Shown piece after piece: positions 3,204-57,488 of a stretch of 64,000 nt of DNA (the stretch's first letter is position 1; every line of letters begins with the position of its first letter). The DNA is from Escherichia coli (GTDB lineage Bacteria > Pseudomonadota > Gammaproteobacteria > Enterobacterales > Enterobacteriaceae). Where the stretch lies: assembly GCF_003790525.1 (NCBI RefSeq), contig NZ_CP033635.1, one strand, 5' to 3'. Under the pieces are notes generated by a model that saw nothing but the letters and a program-made list of their open reading frames with translations, was not told the DNA's origin and made no database searches. The position numbers were made by a program, and so were the translations under genes.

Positions 3204-3981
3204 TTAATCCCGCAATATATCGGCCTGGCGTTTGCCCCAGGCCTTTCTTAAACATAGTAATAAAGGCCGTTGTTGAATCATACCCCAGCGTATGAGCAAC
3301 TTTCTGTACAGTATCGCCTTTCACTAATCCCTGAAGCGCCATAATCAGCTGTAACTGCTGACGCCACTGGCGAAAACTCAACCCCGTCTCTTTCACTATC
3401 AGCCGGGCAAGATTGCGTTCACTCATCGCAAAAAAGCCAGCCCATTGCCCCAATGAGCCCCACTCGACGGGCTCTTTCGCCATCATCTCCACCATCGTGC
3501 GGATTTTAGGATGAGAAGAAACGGGCAGGTGCAGCTGTTGTTGTGGCTGCTGAGGGAGTTCATCAAACAGGACCTGAATTAATCTGCGGGTCATCGGCTC
3601 AGCACGCTGAGTCGTCGTCCTGTTTGCCAGGGTTAAAATTAATTCCCGGCATAAGGGCGATATTTTCAATGTGCAACATGTTGTCGGCATTGTCACTGCG
3701 CTGGGCTCGATAAACAGAAAACAGAGTTCAGCGTTAGCTGTCACTTGATTGCTATGTTTCACCCCGCCCGGTATCCAAACCGCATATTGTGGCGGCACCA
3801 TCCACAAAGCATTTTCCACCGTACAGGTAATTGCACCATGTAGCGCCAGTATCAACTGCCCTTTGCGGTGCTGATGTACAGGACTGGTTAACTCATCCGT
3901 TCCGGCGTGAATACAAAATGCGACCGCGGCCTCATGGTGTCGGTCGGGTTCATAGCCATTGAGATTCAACCTGTGCATCAT
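3160..3981 (-). CDS. nimR: AraC-family transcriptional regulator NimR (YeaM), 273 aa
   Basis: Full-length ORF; C-terminal AraC-type HTH; divergent from nimT; 3' end overlaps yeaL convergently by 44 nt. Confidence 0.93.
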
Positions 3982-8525: not shown

Positions 8526-9233
<708 letters not shown>

Positions 9234-9290
9234 TTAGAAAGGAGAAAATCAGGTTTTAACCCGATATCAACGCGATAATTGAATCATTAA

Positions 9291-10214
9291 TCAGGCATGC
9301 TCCAGTGAAAAATTCGGGTAGTGCTCGGCAAAATACTGGCGTAAAAATTCTACCGTTATCCGCACTTTCGCTGACGTCGCCAGCCTTGAAACATAAACGG
9401 CCCAGACGTTCGCTGGCTGGTAATATTCCGGTAGCACTTGCACTAAATGACCACTGGCAATGTTTTCGCTAACATCCCACCAGGAGCGCAGAGCAATCCC
9501 CTGCCCATCGAGACACCACTGATGGACAATTTCTCCATGATTAGACGACAGTGGGCCGGTAACTTTAATCGCATGGTGGCCTTCTTTATTGCGTAATTGC
9601 CAGACACCAAAAGGATGATCGCGCTCTTTAATGACCAGGCACGGCAATGCAGAAAGATCGGTTAAATGTTTCGGCGCGCCATGTTGCGCAATAAATTCCG
9701 GTGACGCGCAGAGAATGCGATAATTGGTCGCCAGTTTGCGGGCGATTAAATTAGGGGCGATATCATCGCCAATGCGAATATCGAGATCGACACCTTCATT
9801 GACCAAATCGACCAACCGGTCTTCCACATCAAAACGTAATTCCAGTTGCGGATACGCCTTCGCCAGCGCTGATAACGCCGGAGCCACCACCTGTCGTCCA
9901 AAACCAAAGCTGCTGATAATACGCAGCATCCCCTGTGGCACCTGACGCACGTCAGAAAGTTCGTCCATCATCTGACCGACATCCTGCAAAATCCGCTGCG
10001 CCCATTCATAAATCCGCTCTCCTTCTTCGGTAATGGTGACGCGGCGGGTGGTGCGGTGTAACAACACCACGTTTAGCGTTTGCTCCAGCAAGGCGATGCG
10101 CTTGCTGACGAACGCCGGAGAAACGCCCAATTCTTCTGCCACGGCGGCAAAACCAGCCCGGCGAGCCACCAGCATAAAGACGCGCAAATCGTTCAGCAGC
10201 GGTAAATTATTCAT
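9291..10214 (-). CDS. dmlR: LysR-family transcriptional regulator DmlR (YeaT), 307 aa
   Basis: ORF 9291..10235; ATG at 10214 (MNNLPLLNDLRVF...) gives 307 aa; N-terminal LysR HTH; divergent from dmlA. Confidence 0.92.
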   Translation of the reverse strand: MNNLPLLNDLRVFMLVARRAGFAAVAEELGVSPAFVSKRIALLEQTLNVVLLHRTTRRVTITEEGERIYEWAQRILQDVGQMMDELSDVRQVPQGMLRIISSFGFGRQVVAPALSALAKAYPQLELRFDVEDRLVDLVNEGVDLDIRIGDDIAPNLIARKLATNYRILCASPEFIAQHGAPKHLTDLSALPCLVIKERDHPFGVWQLRNKEGHHAIKVTGPLSSNHGEIVHQWCLDGQGIALRSWWDVSENIASGHLVQVLPEYYQPANVWAVYVSRLATSAKVRITVEFLRQYFAEHYPNFSLEHA

Positions 10215-10316
10215 GATTCGTGTTTTATGTTTCACCAGTTACAGGGATTAATTCCTTTTCAGTCAATTATAGGATGGTGATGTTGTCAATTTTGATGGTC
10301 AGGAAGTGAGAACCCA

Positions 10317-11402
10317 ATGATGAAAACGATCCGTATTGCTGCGATCCCGGGAGACGGGATTGGCAAAGAAGTCCTTCCTGAAGGGATTCGCGTGTTAAAG
10401 GCTGCCGCTGAGCGCTGGGGCTTCGCCTTGAGTTTTGAGCAAATGGAGTGGGCGAGCTGCGAGTATTACAGCCATCACGGTAAAATGATGCCGGACGACT
10501 GGCATGAGCAACTTAGCCGTTTCGACGCCATCTATTTTGGTGCCGTCGGCTGGCCGGATACCGTTCCGGACCATATTTCGTTGTGGGGTTCGCTGCTGAA
10601 ATTTCGTCGTGAGTTCGACCAGTACGTCAACCTGCGCCCGGTTCGTCTCTTTCCTGGCGTTCCCTGCCCGCTGGCGGGAAAACAGCCTGGCGACATCGAT
10701 TTTTACGTGGTCAGGGAAAACACCGAAGGAGAATATTCCTCGCTCGGCGGTAGAGTGAATGAAGGTACAGAGCATGAAGTCGTCATTCAGGAATCGGTAT
10801 TTACGCGTCGTGGTGTCGATCGCATTTTGCGTTATGCCTTTGAACTTGCACAAAGCCGCCCACGTAAGACGCTAACTTCTGCAACTAAATCGAACGGTTT
10901 AGCCATCAGCATGCCGTACTGGGATGAGCGAGTGGAAGCAATGGCCGAGAATTACCCGGAGATCTGCTGGGACAAGCAGCATATTGATATTCTCTGCGCG
11001 CGTTTTGTGATGCAGCCGGAACGCTTCGATGTGGTGGTGGCGTCCAATTTGTTTGGCGATATCCTTTCCGATCTTGGCCCGGCCTGCACCGGCACCATTG
11101 GCATTGCCCCATCCGCCAACCTGAATCCGGAACGCACTTTCCCGTCGCTCTTCGAGCCAGTCCACGGTTCCGCGCCGGATATCTACGGGAAAAACATTGC
11201 TAACCCTATCGCCACAATTTGGGCCGGTGCAATGATGCTCGATTTTCTCGGCAATGGCGATGAGCGTTTCCAGCAAGCGCATAACGGTATTCTGGCCGCG
11301 ATTGAAGAAGTGATTGCTCACGGGCCGAAAACACCTGATATGAAAGGCAATGCCACCACGCCACAGGTTGCCGACGCGATTTGCAAAATTATTTTGCGTT
11401 AA
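10317..11402 (+). CDS. dmlA: D-malate dehydrogenase (decarboxylating) DmlA (YeaU), 361 aa
   Basis: Full-length ORF; isocitrate/isopropylmalate/tartrate dehydrogenase family. Confidence 0.93.
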   Translation: MMKTIRIAAIPGDGIGKEVLPEGIRVLKAAAERWGFALSFEQMEWASCEYYSHHGKMMPDDWHEQLSRFDAIYFGAVGWPDTVPDHISLWGSLLKFRREFDQYVNLRPVRLFPGVPCPLAGKQPGDIDFYVVRENTEGEYSSLGGRVNEGTEHEVVIQESVFTRRGVDRILRYAFELAQSRPRKTLTSATKSNGLAISMPYWDERVEAMAENYPEICWDKQHIDILCARFVMQPERFDVVVASNLFGDILSDLGPACTGTIGIAPSANLNPERTFPSLFEPVHGSAPDIYGKNIANPIATIWAGAMMLDFLGNGDERFQQAHNGILAAIEEVIAHGPKTPDMKGNATTPQVADAICKIILR

Positions 11403-11423
11403 GGTCAAACCAGTTTATTTGAA

Positions 11424-11450
11424 CCGCGTCACTGACGCGGTTTTTTTATT
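11424..11450 (+). terminator. intrinsic terminator downstream of dmlA
   Basis: Hairpin CCGCGTC-ACTG-ACGCGG followed by TTTTTTT. Confidence 0.7.
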
Positions 11451-11652
11451 CGTTCTTTGCAGTAAATAACCTGCGTCATTTCACCTTTTATTGTTTCCGT
11501 TTCGTGTTTTATGGCTTTCCGTATTCTTAATTGTTTAATTTATGTAACATGCAAATAATCAATTTGTTAATCACGACATACAACTCATTACCCTGCAAAT
11601 AATTACAACTGGCAAAAGCCAGAGACGGGCTTTTATGCCCAGGAGATGACTC

Positions 11653-13263
11653 ATGATGAGCAATGTTAAGAAAAAAGATGTGCCGCTGATAAGCATCAGT
11701 CTGGTGGCCATTCTTTTCATCGCAGCTGCATTAAGCCTTTTCCCACAACAATCGGCCGACGCGGCCAACGCTATATACACTTTTGTTACGCGTACGTTAG
11801 GTTCCGCCGTACAGGTATTGGTTTTGCTGGCAATGGGACTGGTGATTTATTTAGCCACCAGTAAATACGGCAATATTCGTCTTGGCGAAGGAAAACCGGA
11901 ATACAGCACGCTCTCCTGGCTGTTTATGTTTATTTGTGCCGGTTTAGGTTCTTCTACGCTTTATTGGGGGGTTGCTGAATGGGCCTATTATTATCAAACA
12001 CCTGGATTAAATATCGCACCGCGTTCACAACAGGCACTCGAATTTAGCGTCCCTTACTCCTTCTTCCACTGGGGCATCAGCGCCTGGGCAACTTATACGC
12101 TGGCCTCATTAATCATGGCTTATCACTTTCATGTGCGGAAAAACAAAGGTCTGAGTCTTTCCGGCATTATTGCCGCGATTACCGGCGTTCGCCCGCAAGG
12201 CCCGTGGGGAAAACTGGTCGATTTGATGTTCCTGATCGCCACTGTCGGCGCACTGACCATTTCCCTTGTTGTCACCGCAGCAACCTTTACCCGTGGGCTT
12301 TCCGCGCTGACCGGTTTACCCGATAATTTCACCGTGCAGGCATTTGTGATCCTGCTTTCCGGCGGCATTTTTTGCCTAAGCTCATGGATTGGTATCAACA
12401 ACGGTTTGCAACGTCTGAGCAAAATGGTTGGCTGGGGCGCGTTCCTGCTGCCATTACTGGTGCTCATTGTCGGCCCAACCGAATTTATTACCAACAGCAT
12501 CATCAATGCCATCGGCCTGACCACGCAAAACTTCCTGCAAATGAGCTTATTCACCGATCCGCTTGGCGATGGTTCATTTACCCGCAACTGGACCGTTTTC
12601 TACTGGCTGTGGTGGATCTCATACACCCCTGGCGTAGCAATGTTTGTCACCCGCGTTTCCCGCGGTCGTAAGATTAAAGAAGTTATCTGGGGACTGATCC
12701 TCGGCAGCACCGTCGGTTGCTGGTTCTTCTTCGGCGTAATGGAAAGCTATGCCATTCACCAGTTTATCAATGGCGTAATCAACGTCCCACAGGTGCTGGA
12801 AACACTGGGCGGCGAGACAGCTGTGCAGCAAGTTCTGATGTCGTTGCCAGCCGGTAAATTGTTCCTCGCCGCATACCTGGGCGTGATGATTATTTTCCTT
12901 GCCTCGCATATGGATGCAGTGGCCTACACCATGGCGGCGACCAGTACGCGTAATCTCCAGGAAGGTGACGATCCTGACCGTGGGCTGCGTCTTTTCTGGT
13001 GCGTGGTAATTACCCTGATCCCGCTTTCAATTCTTTTCACTGGCGCGTCGCTGGAAACGATGAAAACCACCGTCGTACTCACAGCCCTTCCGTTCCTCGT
13101 CATTTTACTGGTGAAAGTCGGCGGATTTATTCGCTGGCTGAAACAGGATTACGCCGACATTCCGGCTCATCAAGTTGAATATTATCTCCCGCAGACACCG
13201 GTTGAAGCCCTGGAAAAAACACCAGTGCTCCCTGCGGGAACCGTATTCAAAGGCGACAACTGA
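11653..13263 (+). CDS. yeaV: BCCT-family transporter YeaV (putative carnitine/betaine transporter)
   Basis: ORF with ATG at 11653 preceded by AGGAG; BCCT family resemblance by similarity to CaiT; exact annotated start uncertain. Confidence 0.88.
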
Positions 13264-13294
13264 GCGCCATCATCCTAACGATAAAGGTATCCCT

Positions 13295-14419
13295 ATGAGC
13301 AATCTGAGCCCTGACTTTGTACTACCCGAAAATTTTTGCGCTAACCCGCAAGAGGCGTGGACCATTCCTGCCCGTTTTTATACCGATCAGAACGCCTTTG
13401 AACACGAAAAAGAGAGCGTCTTCGCCAAAAGCTGGATTTGCGTCGCTCACAGCAGCGAACTGGCGAATGCCAATGATTATGTGACGCGTGAGATCATTGG
13501 CGAAAGCATTGTGCTGGTACGCGGTCGTGATAAGGTTTTGCGCGCGTTCTATAACGTGTGTCCGCACCGTGGTCATCAGTTGTTGAGCGGTGAAGGAAAA
13601 GCGAAAAATGTGATTACCTGCCCATATCACGCATGGGCATTCAAACTCGATGGCAACCTGGCCCATGCACGTAACTGCGAAAACGTCGCCAATTTCGATA
13701 GCGACAAAGCGCAACTGGTTCCGGTGCGTCTGGAAGAATATGCCGGATTCGTCTTCATCAACATGGACCCTAACGCCACCAGCGTAGAAGATCAGTTACC
13801 CGGTCTGGGGGCGAAAGTGCTGGAAGCCTGCCCGGAAGTCCACGACCTGAAACTGGCGGCCCGCTTTACCACCCGCACGCCTGCCAACTGGAAGAACATT
13901 GTCGATAACTATCTCGAGTGCTATCACTGTGGTCCGGCGCATCCAGGTTTCTCCGACTCCGTACAGGTTGATCGTTACTGGCACACCATGCACGGTAACT
14001 GGACGCTGCAATACGGTTTCGCCAAACCGTCCGAACAGTCTTTCAAATTCGAAGAGGGCACGGATGCGGCATTCCACGGTTTCTGGCTGTGGCCGTGCAC
14101 GATGCTGAACGTCACCCCAATCAAAGGGATGATGACGGCCATTTATGAATTCCCAGTGGATTCTGAAACTACCCTGCAAAACTACGATATTTACTTCACC
14201 AATGAAGAGTTAACCGACGAGCAAAAATCGCTGATTGAGTGGTATCGCGATGTGTTCCGTCCGGAAGATTTACGTCTGGTTGAAAGCGTACAGAAAGGGC
14301 TGAAATCGCGTGGCTATCGTGGTCAGGGGCGCATCATGGCCGACAGTAGCGGTAGCGGAATTTCCGAACATGGTATCGCCCATTTCCATAATCTGCTGGC
14401 GCAGGTGTTTAAGGACTAA
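13295..14419 (+). CDS. yeaW: carnitine monooxygenase oxygenase subunit YeaW (CntA-like Rieske protein), 374 aa
   Basis: ORF 13175..14419; ATG at 13295 gives 374 aa; Rieske motif CPHRGH...CPYHAW present. Confidence 0.92.
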   Translation: MSNLSPDFVLPENFCANPQEAWTIPARFYTDQNAFEHEKESVFAKSWICVAHSSELANANDYVTREIIGESIVLVRGRDKVLRAFYNVCPHRGHQLLSGEGKAKNVITCPYHAWAFKLDGNLAHARNCENVANFDSDKAQLVPVRLEEYAGFVFINMDPNATSVEDQLPGLGAKVLEACPEVHDLKLAARFTTRTPANWKNIVDNYLECYHCGPAHPGFSDSVQVDRYWHTMHGNWTLQYGFAKPSEQSFKFEEGTDAAFHGFWLWPCTMLNVTPIKGMMTAIYEFPVDSETTLQNYDIYFTNEELTDEQKSLIEWYRDVFRPEDLRLVESVQKGLKSRGYRGQGRIMADSSGSGISEHGIAHFHNLLAQVFKD

Positions 14420-14474
14420 TGACATCAGCGGCGGTATTTTCCGCCGCTGGGCTGATTTTTGATGGAGTACAGCA

Positions 14475-15440
14475 ATGTCAGACTATCAAATGTTTGAAGT
14501 ACAGGTGAACCAAATTGAACCGCTTACCGAACAGGTGAAACGCTTCACGCTGGTGGCAACCGATGGCAAACCATTACCTGCGTTTACCGGAGGAAGTCAC
14601 GTCATTGTGCAGATGAGCGATGGTGATAACGAGTACAGCAATGCGTATTCACTACTGAGTTCGCCGCATGACACCTCTTGTTATCAGATTGCCGTTCGGC
14701 TGGAGGAAAACTCGCGCGGCGGTTCCCGCTTTTTGCATCAGCAGGTAAAAGTGGGCGATCGGTTAACGATTTCAACGCCTAATAACCTGTTTGCGCTAAT
14801 TCCCTCGGCCAGAAAGCATCTGTTTATCGCGGGAGGCATTGGTATCACCCCTTTCCTGTCGCACCTGGCAGAGATGCAATACAGCGACGTCGACTGGCAG
14901 TTACATTACTGCTCACGAAATCCAGAAAGTTGCGCATTTCGTGATGAGCTAGTCCAGCATCCGCAGGCTGAGAAAGTTCATTTTCATCACTCATCAACCG
15001 GAACACGACTGGAATTAGCGCGATTATTGACGGATATCGAACCTGGCACACATGTTTATACCTGTGGCCCCGAGGCGCTAAATGAGGCGGTAAGAAGTGA
15101 AGCTGCGCGTCTGGACATCGCCGTCGATACGATGCACTTTGAACAATTTGCGATTGAAGACAAAACCGGCGATGCATTTACCCTGGTGCTTGCCCGTTCC
15201 GGTAAAGAGTTTGTGGTGCCGGAAGAGATGACTATTTTGCAGGTTATTGAAAATAATAAAGCAGCGAAAGTGGAATGTTTATGTCGTGAAGGGGTATGCG
15301 GAACCTGCGAAACGGCAATACTGGAAGGTGAAGCTGACCATCGGGATCAGTATTTTAGCGATGAAGAGCGTGCCAGCCAGCAAAGTATGTTGATCTGTTG
15401 TTCGCGCGCGAAGGGTAAACGCCTGGTGTTGGATTTGTAG
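14475..15440 (+). CDS. yeaX: carnitine monooxygenase reductase subunit YeaX (CntB-like), 321 aa
   Basis: Full-length ORF; plant-type 2Fe-2S cysteine cluster (CREGVCGTCE) and FNR-like flavin/NAD domain. Confidence 0.92.
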   Translation: MSDYQMFEVQVNQIEPLTEQVKRFTLVATDGKPLPAFTGGSHVIVQMSDGDNEYSNAYSLLSSPHDTSCYQIAVRLEENSRGGSRFLHQQVKVGDRLTISTPNNLFALIPSARKHLFIAGGIGITPFLSHLAEMQYSDVDWQLHYCSRNPESCAFRDELVQHPQAEKVHFHHSSTGTRLELARLLTDIEPGTHVYTCGPEALNEAVRSEAARLDIAVDTMHFEQFAIEDKTGDAFTLVLARSGKEFVVPEEMTILQVIENNKAAKVECLCREGVCGTCETAILEGEADHRDQYFSDEERASQQSMLICCSRAKGKRLVLDL

Positions 15441-15443
15441 TTT

Positions 15444-15481
15444 GCCGAAGCCGGACTGAGCGCGCTCAGTCCGGCTTCGGA
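15444..15481. terminator. long perfect palindrome between convergent yeaX and rnd (probable bidirectional terminator)
   Basis: GCCGAAGCCGGACTGAGCGCGCTCAGTCCGGCTTCGG, about 18-bp perfect arms, in the 46-bp gap between the two stop codons. Confidence 0.6.
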
Positions 15482-15486
15482 AGATT

Positions 15487-16614
15487 TTACTGCGGATATT
15501 CCTGCAATAAATTGTGTAATGCTTCCGCCATCAGCTCACCACGCCAGCCGGAAATCAGCTCCGGCAAATTGTTCTGCGGTTTCAGTTTCCAGTGCCAGTT
15601 CAGCAGTTGGTTGATTTGCCGACGCGATGCCAGCAATTCGGCGCTGATCTTGTGCGTTTCGCTCACGTCAGTAATCAGCGACTTAATCGCTTTAAACGCT
15701 TTACGATAACCCGGCATGTCCATCAGGTTAAGCATCGGCTGCGGTAAGGCCTCTTCCGGCAATGTCTGCGCTTTTTCCACCAGCGCCAGCAGCGTTTTAC
15801 CGTGAAAGCGGATTTCGCTACCGGATAAACCCAGGCTGTCCAGTTCGCCTAAACTTCCCGGCATATAACGCGCTACAGACCACAAATGCTCTTCACGCAC
15901 GACAAAGTTCACTGCCAGATCGCGCTCCCGCGCCTTGCGCAGTCGCCAATCGGCTAACAGTTGCAGACAGGCCAGTTGGCGTGTGCGTAACTGCCAGGCA
16001 TTGGTGATATCACGCCAGGCATCTTCCGGCGCAACGACTTCCTGACGACGCATTTGCATCAGGCGGCATTCATCCAGCGCCGCAGGTAGCCAGCCGGAGG
16101 CCTCCGTTTCTACCATAAGCTTGGCGGTGATCGGTAACAAATACCAGACATCCGCCGCTGCGTATTCACACTGACGTTCGGTCAGCGGTCTGGCCAGCCA
16201 GTCGGTGCGCGATTCACTCTTGTCCAGCGTAACGCCGGAATACTCTTCCACCATGGAAGCAAAACCCCATGACATCGGGCGTCCGCAGAAGGCAGCAAGG
16301 ATTTGCGTGTCAATCAGGGGTTGTGGTAATTCGCCAAAGACATTGAGGAACACTTCCAGATCTTCACTGCCCGCATGGAGAAATTTTGTGATGGACGGAT
16401 CGCGCAGGATCGCTTTCAGTGGTGACCAGTCGGAGATCCCGAGAGGATCAATTAGCGCCAGATGCTCACCATCAAAAAGTTGAATTAGACCTAGCTGCGG
16501 GTAATAGGTGCGCGTACGAACAAATTCAGTATCCAGGGCTATCGCCGGAAAGGCACGGACGGCTTCACACAAAGAAGCCAGCGCATCGTCCGTGGTAATC
16601 ATTTGGTAATTCAA
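15487..16614 (-). CDS. rnd: ribonuclease D, 375 aa
   Basis: Full-length ORF; MNYQMITTDDALASL...; start codon is TTG (plus-strand CAA at 16612..16614), as known for rnd. Confidence 0.95.
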   Translation of the reverse strand: MNYQMITTDDALASLCEAVRAFPAIALDTEFVRTRTYYPQLGLIQLFDGEHLALIDPLGISDWSPLKAILRDPSITKFLHAGSEDLEVFLNVFGELPQPLIDTQILAAFCGRPMSWGFASMVEEYSGVTLDKSESRTDWLARPLTERQCEYAAADVWYLLPITAKLMVETEASGWLPAALDECRLMQMRRQEVVAPEDAWRDITNAWQLRTRQLACLQLLADWRLRKARERDLAVNFVVREEHLWSVARYMPGSLGELDSLGLSGSEIRFHGKTLLALVEKAQTLPEEALPQPMLNLMDMPGYRKAFKAIKSLITDVSETHKISAELLASRRQINQLLNWHWKLKPQNNLPELISGWRGELMAEALHNLLQEYPQ

Positions 16615-23426: not shown

Positions 23427-24788
23427 ATGAAGACGTTATCTCCCGCTGTGATTACTTTACCCTGGCGTCAGGACGCCGCTGAATTTTATTTCTCACGCTT
23501 AAGCCACCTGCCGTGGGCGATGCTTTTACACTCCGGCTATGCCGATCATCCGTATAGCCGCTTTGATATTGTGGTCGCCGAGCCAATTTGCACTTTAACT
23601 ACTTTCGGTAAAGAAACCGTTATTAGTGAAAGCGATAAACGTACAACGACCACTGATGACCCGCTACAGGTGCTCCAGCAGGTGCTGGATCGCGCAGACA
23701 TTCACCCAACGCATAACGAAGATTTGCCATTTCAGGGCGGCGCGCTGGGGTTGTTTGGCTACGATCTGGGCCGCCGTTTTGAGTCACTGCCAGAAATTGC
23801 GCAGCAAGATATCGTTCTGCCGGATATGGCAGTGGGTATCTACGACTGGGCGCTGGTTGTTGACCACCAGCGTCAAACAGTTTCTTTGCTGAGTCATAAT
23901 GATGTCAATGCTCGTCGGGCCTGGCTGGAAAGCCAGCAATTCTCGCCGCAGGAAGATTTCACGCTCACTTCCGACTGGCAATCCAATATGACCCGCGAAC
24001 TGTACGGCGAAAAATTTCGCCAGGTACAGGAATATCTGCACAGCGGTGATTGCTATCAGGTGAATCTCGCCCAGCGTTTTCATGCGACCTATTCTGGCGA
24101 TGAATGGCAGGCATTCCTTCAGCTTAATCAGGCCAACCGCGCGCCGTTTAGCGCTTTTTTACGCCTTGAACAAGGCACGATTTTAAGCCTTTCGCCAGAG
24201 CGGTTTATCCTTTGTGATAACAGTGAAATCCAGACCCGCCCGATTAAAGGCACGCTACCACGCCTGCCCGATCCTCAGGAAGATAGCAAACAAGCAGAGA
24301 AACTGGCGAACTCAGCGAAAGATCGTGCCGAAAATCTGATGATTGTCGATTTAATGCGTAATGATATCGGTCGTGTTGCCGTAGCAGGTTCGGTAAAAGT
24401 ACCAGAGCTGTTCGTGGTGGAACCCTTCCCTGCCGTGCATCATCTGGTCAGCACCATAACGGCGCAACTACCAGAACAGTTACACGCCAGCGATCTGCTG
24501 CGCGCGGCTTTTCCTGGTGGCTCAATAACTGGGGCTCCGAAAGTACGGGCTATGGAAATTATCGACGAACTGGAACCGCAGCGACGCAATGCCTGGTGCG
24601 GCAGCATTGGCTATTTGAGCTTTTGCGGCAACATGGACACCAGCATTACTATCCGCACGCTGACTGCCATTAACGGACAAATTTACTGCTCTGCGGGGGG
24701 TGGAATTGTCGCCGATAGCCAGGAAGAAGCGGAATATCAGGAAACTTTTGATAAAGTTAATAAGATATTACGCCAACTGGAGAAGTAA
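23427..24788 (+). CDS. pabB: aminodeoxychorismate synthase component I PabB, 453 aa
   Basis: Full-length ORF; chorismate-binding enzyme family. Confidence 0.95.
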   Translation: MKTLSPAVITLPWRQDAAEFYFSRLSHLPWAMLLHSGYADHPYSRFDIVVAEPICTLTTFGKETVISESDKRTTTTDDPLQVLQQVLDRADIHPTHNEDLPFQGGALGLFGYDLGRRFESLPEIAQQDIVLPDMAVGIYDWALVVDHQRQTVSLLSHNDVNARRAWLESQQFSPQEDFTLTSDWQSNMTRELYGEKFRQVQEYLHSGDCYQVNLAQRFHATYSGDEWQAFLQLNQANRAPFSAFLRLEQGTILSLSPERFILCDNSEIQTRPIKGTLPRLPDPQEDSKQAEKLANSAKDRAENLMIVDLMRNDIGRVAVAGSVKVPELFVVEPFPAVHHLVSTITAQLPEQLHASDLLRAAFPGGSITGAPKVRAMEIIDELEPQRRNAWCGSIGYLSFCGNMDTSITIRTLTAINGQIYCSAGGGIVADSQEEAEYQETFDKVNKILRQLEK

Positions 24789-24791
24789 GAC

Positions 24792-25370
24792 GTGGAATAC
24801 CGTAGCCTGACGCTTGATGATTTTTTATCGCGCTTTCAACTTTTGCGCCCGCAAATTAACCGGGAAACCCTAAATCATCGTCAGGCTGCCGTGTTAATCC
24901 CCATCGTCCGTCGACCGCAACCGGGGTTGTTGCTGACTCAGCGTTCGATTCATCTGCGCAAACACGCTGGACAAGTGGCATTCCCTGGAGGCGCAGTCGA
25001 TGACACGGACGCATCCGTTATCGCCGCTGCGCTGCGCGAAGCTGAAGAAGAGGTCGCTATACCGCCTTCCACCGTTGAAGTTATCGGCGTGCTGCCGCCC
25101 GTCGATAGCGTCACTGGCTACCAGGTAACCCCAGTGGTCGGCATTATCCCGCCCGATCTGCCGTATCGCGCCAGTGAAGATGAAGTCTCGGCGGTGTTTG
25201 AAATGCCGCTCGCCCAGGCATTACATCTGGGTCGTTATCATCCTTTAGATATCTACCGCCGTGGCGATTCACATCGGGTATGGCTGTCCTGGTACGAACA
25301 GTATTTTGTATGGGGAATGACCGCAGGCATAATTCGTGAACTGGCGCTGCAAATTGGTGTGAAACCCTGA
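24792..25370 (+). CDS. nudL: Nudix CoA pyrophosphatase NudL (YeaB), 192 aa
   Basis: Full-length ORF starting (GTG) 3 nt after the pabB stop; Nudix box ([25 protein letters not shown]). Confidence 0.92.
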
Positions 25371-25553
25371 CTATACTTATCTTTACATCTACAAAACACT
25401 ACTTGAGACAATCATCGCAATATTAGTTAAATCGCGGTTTTTGATTAGTTTAATTCATGTGAATAGTTAAGCCAGTCGCCGCGTTCCCTCTTACACTATG
25501 CGCTGTTATTAGTTCGTTACTGGAAGTCCAGTCACCTTGTCAGGAGTATTATC

Positions 25554-54741: not shown

Positions 54742-57488
<2,747 letters not shown>

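Follow-up and report, generated by a model that had tools for sequence, protein, structure and literature searches.

The DNA analysed here, a stretch of 64,000 nucleotides (nt) from Escherichia coli (contig NZ_CP033635.1; hereafter the window), carries between leuE and rnd a cluster of five genes, dmlR-dmlA-yeaV-yeaW-yeaX, in which the two subunits of carnitine monooxygenase stand next to a transporter, a dehydrogenase and a regulator. Gene coordinates were taken from the RefSeq annotation of E. coli SMS-3-5 (NC_010498.1), which is 100% identical to the window, and converted to window positions. On the minus strand lies dmlR (yeaT; 9291-10214), which encodes a LysR-type regulator of 307 amino acids (aa). 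The other four genes are on the plus strand: dmlA (yeaU; 10317-11402) for a decarboxylating D-malate/tartrate/3-isopropylmalate dehydrogenase, yeaV (11653-13263) for the full-length, 536-aa form of a BCCT-family transporter, yeaW (cntA; 13295-14419) for the 374-aa Rieske oxygenase subunit of carnitine monooxygenase, and yeaX (cntB; 14475-15440) for the reductase subunit, with flavin mononucleotide (FMN)/NADH-binding and plant-type [2Fe-2S] domains. The original prediction, made from the letters alone, had placed these five genes in 9291-15440, and the RefSeq annotation and domain matches agree with it. The open reading frames (ORFs) found mechanically need start-codon corrections only for dmlR, where the frame reaches a GTG at 10235 (annotated start 10214), and for yeaW, where it begins at a TTG at 13175 (annotated start 13295); the predicted span is unaffected.

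This locus is the already described E. coli form of the carnitine-to-trimethylamine (TMA) cluster. The finding is already known because the five-gene E. coli cluster, including dmlR and dmlA, has been described as orthologous to that of Acinetobacter baumannii (PMC11353897) and the enzyme has been purified (PMC9508527); the RefSeq product names of yeaW and yeaX are likewise carnitine monooxygenase subunits. With gene content and enzymology settled, the finding itself adds nothing new. What this analysis adds is a predicted operator common to dmlA and yeaV, a clean loss of the malic semialdehyde dehydrogenase (MSA-DH) gene msadh in Escherichia, and a three-allele polymorphism.

The five proteins of the cluster

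YeaW matches CntA of A. baumannii (PDB 6y8j) over residues 4-371 with an E-value of 1.2e-196, the next-best PDB family scoring about 6e-33, and is made up of the Pfam domains Rieske and Ring_hydroxyl_A. Its Rieske ligands C89, H91, C109 and H112 satisfy the pattern C-X-H-X17-C-X2-H in the translated sequence, and the two motifs that had been read from the letters, CPHRGH and CPYHAW, are present at residues 89-94 and 109-114. The 2-His-1-carboxylate triad of the mononuclear iron is also present (H211, H216 and D325, the last within RPEDL). The bridging residue E208, in E208-C-Y-H211-C-G-P-A-H216, is a glutamate in place of the usual aspartate. These ligand residues are those assigned for E. coli YeaW (PMC9508527), and with all of them kept the CntAB-type architecture that had been proposed is borne out. 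The oxygenase is alpha-only: the cluster contains no small beta-subunit gene and no further ORF, its spacers measuring 31 nt between yeaV and yeaW and 55 nt between yeaW and yeaX.

YeaX combines FAD_binding_6 (residues 9-103), NAD_binding_1 (117-207) and Fer2 (240-313) domains of Pfam and matches phthalate dioxygenase reductase (PDB 2pia) at an E-value of 6.7e-55, which identifies it by sequence as a phthalate-dioxygenase-reductase-type partner of YeaW. The [2Fe-2S] cysteines C270, C275 and C278 lie in the predicted motif CREGVCGTCE, found at residues 270-279, and further cysteines stand at 308-309, of which C308 is the fourth cluster ligand (PMC9508527). With purified E. coli YeaW/YeaX, L-carnitine is split into TMA and malic semialdehyde (PMC9508527), in agreement with the TMA-forming function first suggested. 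The window proteins are 99% (YeaW) and 97% (YeaX) identical to those of K-12, so O2- and NADH-dependent TMA release would carry over to them. A methods table that scores K-12 as TMA-positive from carnitine was traced to the use of K-12 DNA as a standard for quantitative PCR and is not evidence of native activity. Glycine betaine monooxygenase GbcAB and stachydrine demethylase (3vca) likewise pair an alpha-only oxygenase, with Rieske and mononuclear-iron centres, with a separate FNR-type/[2Fe-2S] reductase, and similarity to YeaW is detectable in the N-terminal halves. However, YeaW reaches only 154 bits against the GbcA model (cut-off 670) and an E-value of 1e-30 against 3vca (1e-196 for CntA), and the substrates and products of these enzymes are unlike those of YeaW/YeaX.

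DmlA is supported by its ORF, the RefSeq annotation, a Pfam Iso_dh match (5.5e-88) and the tartrate dehydrogenase equivalog TIGR02089 (563.4 bits; cut-off 470.4), and it is 72% identical to the D-malate-specific dehydrogenase (MDH) of A. baumannii. DmlR, likewise supported by its ORF, by RefSeq and by Pfam (HTH_1 and LysR_substrate), is the orthologue of A. baumannii carR (45-49% identity); it scores 359 against the equivalog of the paralogue TtdR, below the cut-off of 398. In a passage of PMC5795001, citing Lukas 2010, DmlR is described as a cytosolic sensor of D-malate. The genes dmlR and dmlA are divergent and separated by 102 nt, and the length of this spacer stays between 94 and 135 nt across all loci compared. 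YeaV matches the Pfam BCCT domain (1.9e-121) and NF007412 from position 1 to 536 of 536 (1030.8 bits; cut-off 647), and is the orthologue of the A. baumannii transporter Aci01347 (56% identity), which imports carnitine and choline (PMC11353897). Overexpression of the K-12 form of yeaV depleted carnitine from serum (PMC10971958). Together with the identity to Aci01347, this points to carnitine as the probable substrate of YeaV.

In A. baumannii the cluster reads carR <> mdh-bcct(aci01347)-hyd-cntA-msadh-cntB, and five of its genes are common with the window, in equal order and orientation; CntA and CntB are 72-74% and 49-52% identical to the window proteins. The enzyme chemistry is alike in the two species, carnitine being converted to TMA and malic semialdehyde. 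The A. baumannii route has been reconstituted from L-carnitine through malic semialdehyde to D-malate (by MSA-DH) and on to pyruvate and CO2 (by MDH), D-malate being formed stereospecifically and being the product stereochemically expected from L-carnitine cleavage (PMC11353897). The idea that dmlA offers a route for a product derived from malic semialdehyde is thus right in principle, since this pathway uses the DmlA orthologue. Differences are nonetheless clear. The window lacks hyd (a putative acylcarnitine hydrolase gene) and msadh, whereas A. baumannii has both, and the E. coli genes dmlR, dmlA, yeaV, cntA and cntB were called orthologous, with the absence of these two genes noted (PMC11353897). 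The mdh-bcct gap of Acinetobacter is 20-56 nt within one operon, whereas a terminator and a 250-nt spacer lie between dmlA and yeaV in the window. DNA binding by CarR to the spacer between carR and the operon is carnitine-dependent (PMC11353897), whereas the ligand known for DmlR is D-malate. Finally, A. baumannii grows on carnitine, whereas the E. coli strains tested do not (PMC11353897).

Gene order across species and the loss of msadh

Gene neighbourhoods were compared at 80 loci encoding YeaW relatives, one genome per species, with neighbouring genes mapped by tblastn. The order dmlR<>dmlA-yeaV-(hyd)-yeaW-(msadh)-yeaX was found in about 60 species, in Escherichia, Citrobacter, Yersinia, Xenorhabdus, Serratia, Pseudomonas, Acinetobacter, Vitreoscilla and Neisseriaceae. 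In Paraburkholderia, dmlR stays with yeaW-msadh-yeaX and dmlA lies a few kb off in several loci. Because the order recurs so widely, the cluster is, judged by these comparisons, one ancestral unit, and the juxtaposition seen in E. coli is inherited rather than accidental. In nine Paraburkholderia/Burkholderia loci the BCCT gene is not beside cntA, a second Rieske oxygenase paralogue (31-34% identical) lies beyond the dmlR-like gene, distal to cntA, and dmlA is found 3-6 kb downstream on the opposite strand.

The two additional genes of A. baumannii are distributed unevenly. The hyd gene is present in Acinetobacter, Vitreoscilla and Aquitalea loci and was absent from all Enterobacterales and Pseudomonas loci compared, including the window. 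As for msadh, it is missing from all Escherichia loci and also from some loci of Citrobacter, Yersinia, Xenorhabdus, Serratia and Pseudomonas, and has therefore been lost repeatedly. Several Citrobacter species carry it between yeaW and yeaX at the same rnd-adjacent site. The clusters of Citrobacter sp. R56 and C. youngae CCUG 30791 share with the window this site and the gene order, have DmlR, DmlA, YeaV and YeaW proteins 90-94% identical to those of the window, and contain the same dmlA terminator, two copies of the upstream box described below and the hairpin ahead of yeaX. The difference is msadh itself, 1.45 kb long and 62-64% identical to Acinetobacter MSA-DH. The 55-nt yeaW-yeaX spacer of Escherichia corresponds to the msadh-yeaX spacer of Citrobacter sp. 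R56, with a common GGGCTGATTTTT.A.GGAGT and a preceding stem-loop, and by this comparison msadh was cleanly deleted in Escherichia, with the hairpin of the msadh-yeaX spacer retained. One genome, that of Citrobacter braakii ATCC 51113, has two cntA loci, in contrast with a published statement that the gene is nearly always single-copy; one is beside rnd and lacks msadh (YeaW 91% identical), and the other is a more divergent copy (88%) with msadh.

The cluster has been under strong purifying selection since the loss of msadh. Between E. coli SMS-3-5 and E. albertii, which both lack msadh, the ratio of non-synonymous to synonymous substitution rates (dN/dS) is 0.016 for dmlR, 0.029 for dmlA, 0.035 for yeaV, 0.015 for yeaW and 0.087 for yeaX, compared with 0.019 for the neighbouring housekeeping gene rnd.

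Transcription units and a box upstream of dmlA and yeaV

At 11421-11450 on the plus strand, dmlA is followed by an intrinsic terminator with a 10-bp GC-rich stem, a 3-nt loop and a U7 run, identified by scan and folding (-16.9 kcal/mol, z-score -3.8). Escherichia and Citrobacter both have it, differing by one compensatory pair change, and analogous but different hairpins lie 3' of dmlA in Xenorhabdus, Serratia and Pseudomonas; no such hairpin was found in the 20-56-nt gap of Acinetobacter. Since dmlA ends in a strong terminator, yeaV-yeaW-yeaX probably has its own promoter. Outside Acinetobacter, dmlA is thus probably transcribed on its own and yeaV-yeaW-(msadh)-yeaX as a second unit. Two small hairpins (CTGGC-AAAA-GCCAG and GGGC-TTTTAT-GCCC; 11609-11640, plus strand) lie in the presumed 5' untranslated region (UTR) of yeaV, directly ahead of its Shine-Dalgarno sequence AGGAG (11641-11645). 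The fold of 11570-11660 reaches -22.4 kcal/mol (z-score -3.8), and in Citrobacter the stems are kept and the loops vary. The spacer between yeaW and yeaX holds a 10-bp stem-loop with a T-run, found by scan and folding (14425-14460, plus strand; -26.9 kcal/mol, z-score -5.4). In the 10 sequences compared its base pairs are preserved, 4 of them despite changes on both sides, and it may act as a partial terminator or as an mRNA element lowering expression of the reductase relative to the oxygenase. A perfect 16-bp palindromic hairpin (15445-15480) separates the convergent genes yeaX and rnd; it folds at -33.6 and -32.8 kcal/mol on the two strands (z-scores about -7), is retained in strains that have lost the cluster, and is probably a bidirectional terminator. 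An Rfam scan of 9000-15800 at a permissive threshold returned chance-level matches only (E-values 0.13-0.86), with no known riboswitch or small RNA in the spacers.

Both units are preceded by copies of one element. Box 1, TTCGTGTTTTATGTTTCAC (10217-10235, plus strand), contains a GTG-N10-CAC dyad and is a candidate LysR-type (DmlR) site; its distance to the downstream ATG of dmlA is 97 nt, and it directly adjoins the start of dmlR. Autoregulatory or recognition sites of LysR proteins typically have such a position, right beside the divergent regulator gene. Box 2, TTCGTGTTTTATGGCTTTCC (11501-11520, plus strand), is a second copy of the GTGTTTTAT element, 149 nt upstream of the yeaV ATG. The 13-mer TTCGTGTTTTATG occurs exactly twice in the window, at 10217 and 11501, both on the plus strand, and the 10-mer CGTGTTTTAT three times (0.16 expected). 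The third copy of this 10-mer lies far from the cluster, at 55094-55103 on the minus strand. In a sample of 25 enterobacterial loci of 12-17 kb, the 9-mer GTGTTTTAT was found upstream of yeaV in every locus, 59-291 nt before the computed yeaV start, and upstream of dmlA in 16; elsewhere in these loci it occurs only twice. Because both promoter regions carry this box, a common regulator of dmlA and yeaV is predicted, DmlR being the simplest candidate. No experimental work on the regulation of yeaVWX, by DmlR or otherwise, was found in the literature.

An AT-rich block with TGTTTAA, TGTAAC and TGTTAA repeats (11526-11571, plus strand) follows box 2 and is conserved from Escherichia to Yersinia, Xenorhabdus and Serratia. 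GTTAAC repeats are found at the equivalent place upstream of the Pseudomonas BCCT gene and in the carR-mdh spacer of Acinetobacter. The block is a probable promoter/operator region of yeaV and, more speculatively, may be a carnitine-responsive operator. A candidate promoter TTGTTT-N16/17-AATAAT at about 11532-11559 was seen by eye only and is not claimed. Matches to CRP, FNR, ArcA and IHF sites in both spacers were weak and at background frequency, and an exact IHF core, AATCAATTTGTTA at 11557-11569, is not conserved by Citrobacter; these were rejected as evidence. A 17-codon ORF, MQIINLLITTYNSLPCK (11549-11602), lies upstream of yeaV and is also open in E. albertii but absent from Citrobacter; no Shine-Dalgarno sequence is evident ahead of it, and the frame has probably arisen by chance.

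Alleles of the cluster and its possible role in E. coli

Most published work was carried out with the K-12/BL21(DE3) allele of yeaVWX, whose genes and flanks are as in the window (97-100% protein identity) except that it lacks a 225-bp segment, window positions 11557-11781 on the plus strand. The junction is identical in K-12 MG1655, BL21(DE3) and XD35. The deletion removes 96 bp upstream of yeaV, including the 5' UTR hairpins and the Shine-Dalgarno sequence, as well as the start codon and codons 1-43, which encode the first transmembrane (hydrophobic) helix. In K-12 a 481-aa YeaV is annotated from an internal TTG, and the Prokaryotic Genome Annotation Pipeline marks yeaV as 'missing N-terminus' in BL21(DE3) and XD35, the BL21 gene being called a pseudogene. 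By contrast, the segment is intact in SE11, HS and the window, which carry the full 536-aa yeaV. No mention of the deletion was found in the literature searched.

Among 5426 complete E. coli genomes, 4366 have the cluster and 2930 (about 54%) keep the segment 11556-11790, so that about 1436 (about 26%) have the cluster without the segment. In a further 1042 genomes (about 19%) the cluster has been lost, in all of them with one common scar, which in strain FEX669 (positions 3292-3707 of its locus) equals the loss of window 9459-15416. The scar retains the dmlR 3' end, a 173-bp internal fragment of dmlA and the dmlA 3' end; the dmlR/dmlA remnants show 89-92% identity, compared with 98% in the flanks, so that by sequence the scar looks like a single old loss. 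The cluster-less genomes include the type strain ATCC 11775 and NC101, which we take to belong to phylogroup B2. Other structural variants were noted in passing. In Escherichia whittamii, yeaV has an 81-bp in-frame gap (27 codons, equivalent to window 12209-12289) relative to E. coli, a further independent lesion or variant affecting the transporter. Two other strains have insertion elements just upstream of the cluster neighbourhood, neither of which is present in the window: in BL21(DE3) yeaR is split by IS421 (positions 24270-25382 of that locus), and in SE11 yoaG has a tnpB/tnpA pair of the IS200/IS605 type next to it (positions 8584-10225 of that locus).

The locus is very probably the Escherichia version of an aerobic carnitine catabolic cluster first worked out in A. 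baumannii. YeaV would import L-carnitine, and probably gamma-butyrobetaine too. YeaX would pass electrons from NADH through FMN and its plant-type [2Fe-2S] cluster to the Rieske cluster and mononuclear iron of a trimeric YeaW, which would hydroxylate carnitine at C4 to give a product that collapses to TMA and (R)-malic semialdehyde. Where clusters are complete, the in-cluster MSA-DH would form D-malate and the DmlA-type enzyme would convert it to pyruvate by oxidative decarboxylation, the divergent LysR regulator (CarR/DmlR) controlling the set. Because Escherichia has lost msadh together with hyd, the aldehyde step would there fall to an enzyme encoded elsewhere, GabD or Sad for example, unless the pathway ends at TMA release. 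In Enterobacterales, dmlA would form a monocistronic unit closed by its terminator, and yeaV-yeaW-yeaX would be transcribed separately from a promoter region of its own. Both units would respond to one factor, in the simplest case DmlR sensing D-malate, a form of product-type induction. GabD is 62% identical to MSA-DH and has been pointed to for this step (PMC11353897). A replacement of MSA-DH by GabD or Sad, and any physiological role of the cluster in E. coli, are what we infer.

A number of observations weigh against a working pathway with this wiring. E. coli BL21, B and K12 showed no growth on L-carnitine, and carnitine monooxygenase activity was undetected in BL21 extract (PMC11353897); transcripts of cntA are rare in human gut metatranscriptomes (PMC8364193); and a tblastn search with MSA-DH was negative for the window cluster and for every Escherichia locus. 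At the level of transcription, a sigma-70 scan, which gave fewer matches overall than shuffled sequences, found no consensus promoter in the dmlA-yeaV spacer and none for dmlA in the dmlR-dmlA spacer, where the one match (10235-10206) is on the minus strand at the dmlR start. No motif common to both spacers, the GTGTTTTAT box included, was found in the Pseudomonas or Acinetobacter clusters; its sharing is restricted to Enterobacterales, so it is not a universal CarR/DmlR site. The downstream half of box 2 is degenerate in E. coli (TTTCC for TTCAC). The sequence of box 1, TGTTT-N6-TCACC, differs from the CRP consensus at three positions, and a genomic SELEX (systematic evolution of ligands by exponential enrichment) study lists yeaV among CRP targets, so that the factor binding the box is not established. 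The last two points would suit a box that is bound by CRP or another global regulator instead of DmlR, with dmlA and yeaV co-regulated only through general catabolite control. Three-mismatch CRP matches are, however, expected 1.6 times per 250 bp by chance, the box 2 spacing is N7 rather than N6 in Citrobacter, Yersinia and Serratia, the downstream half in E. coli is TTTCC, the invariant part GTGTTTTAT is not a CRP half-site, and box 1 has the position expected of a LysR autoregulatory site. Binding by a factor other than DmlR is therefore regarded as somewhat unlikely.

It could also be that dmlR/dmlA and yeaVWX are functionally unrelated neighbours under independent regulation, dmlRA serving free D-malate or tartrate and backing up LeuB, and yeaVWX adjusting, for example, the pool of carnitine as a compatible solute. 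The strong terminator and the 250-nt spacer fit such an arrangement, as does the absence of msadh, the enzymatic link of the two halves; Piskol 2024 suggest that clusters without msadh and/or mdh (Achromobacter piechaudii) mainly adjust carnitine levels, a category that would include the msadh-less E. coli cluster. This appears quite unlikely, given that the halves are adjacent in about 60 species of three orders and form one operon in Acinetobacter, that one conserved box precedes both units, that purifying selection is equally strong on all five genes and that the stereochemistry of L-carnitine cleavage leads to D-malate (PMC11353897). No more plausible is a decaying, cryptic remnant that lost its physiological role in E. 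coli along with msadh. Such decay would explain the loss of hyd and msadh, the 225-bp yeaV deletion in about 26% of genomes, the cluster-less state with degraded dmlR/dmlA fragments in about 19%, the failure of tested strains to grow on carnitine and the low expression in the gut. Against it, the dN/dS values of 0.015-0.087 after the loss of msadh equal that of rnd and therefore argue against simple decay, the catalytic residues are all intact and the enzyme is highly active in vitro (PMC11353897), yeaV is full-length in most genomes (54%), and yeaV and yeaW are induced about two-fold at a growth transition in O157 Sakai.

A further alternative concerns the substrate, which in E. coli could physiologically be gamma-butyrobetaine rather than carnitine. 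E. coli has the cai pathway and the succinic semialdehyde dehydrogenases GabD and Sad. The anaerobic cai pathway makes gamma-butyrobetaine from carnitine; when oxygen becomes available, YeaWX could cleave it to TMA and succinic semialdehyde, GabD/Sad would oxidise the latter to succinate, and msadh and the D-malate branch would be dispensable. CntA orthologues including that of E. coli are highly active on both substrates (PMC9508527, PMC5433236), msadh has repeatedly been lost in Enterobacterales with yeaVWX still under selection, and the identity of GabD to MSA-DH is in keeping with the idea. However, the conservation of dmlA and dmlR beside yeaVWX is better explained by a D-malate route, and the presence of cntA correlates with equal or higher, not lower, gamma-butyrobetaine in stool (PMC8364193), which makes gamma-butyrobetaine as the main substrate unlikely.

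Of the three E. coli strains that failed to grow on carnitine in PMC11353897, K-12 and BL21 carry the truncated yeaV, and B probably does too. This does not make the truncation a proven cause: no E. coli has msadh, and carnitine can also be taken up by other systems. We tentatively propose that E. coli with the intact allele run a DmlR-wired, O2-dependent pathway for carnitine and gamma-butyrobetaine, with yeaVWX driven through the GTGTTTTAT box and GabD/Sad replacing MSA-DH, that laboratory work has missed because the growth-tested strains carry the 225-bp deletion; the proposal as a whole is doubtful.

Few microbial routes that lead from dietary carnitine to TMA are known, and carnitine monooxygenase is one of them. 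TMA is the precursor of trimethylamine N-oxide (TMAO), a compound with a link to cardiovascular disease. In human stool, nearly all of the cntA sequences detected come from E. coli (PMC5433236). The remaining value of the locus lies in the allele polymorphism and in the regulatory question, namely under which conditions and in which E. coli strains the genes are expressed, and whether they supply carbon to metabolism. The predicted operator, the loss of msadh and the three alleles, of which standard laboratory strains carry the one with a truncated transporter gene, call for caution in using cntA counts alone as a proxy for TMA production. If the proposal is true, the contribution of E. coli to TMA would depend on the allele of the strain, whether intact, yeaV-truncated or of the cluster-less B2 type, and such allele differences could explain why cntA gene counts predict TMA and TMAO poorly.

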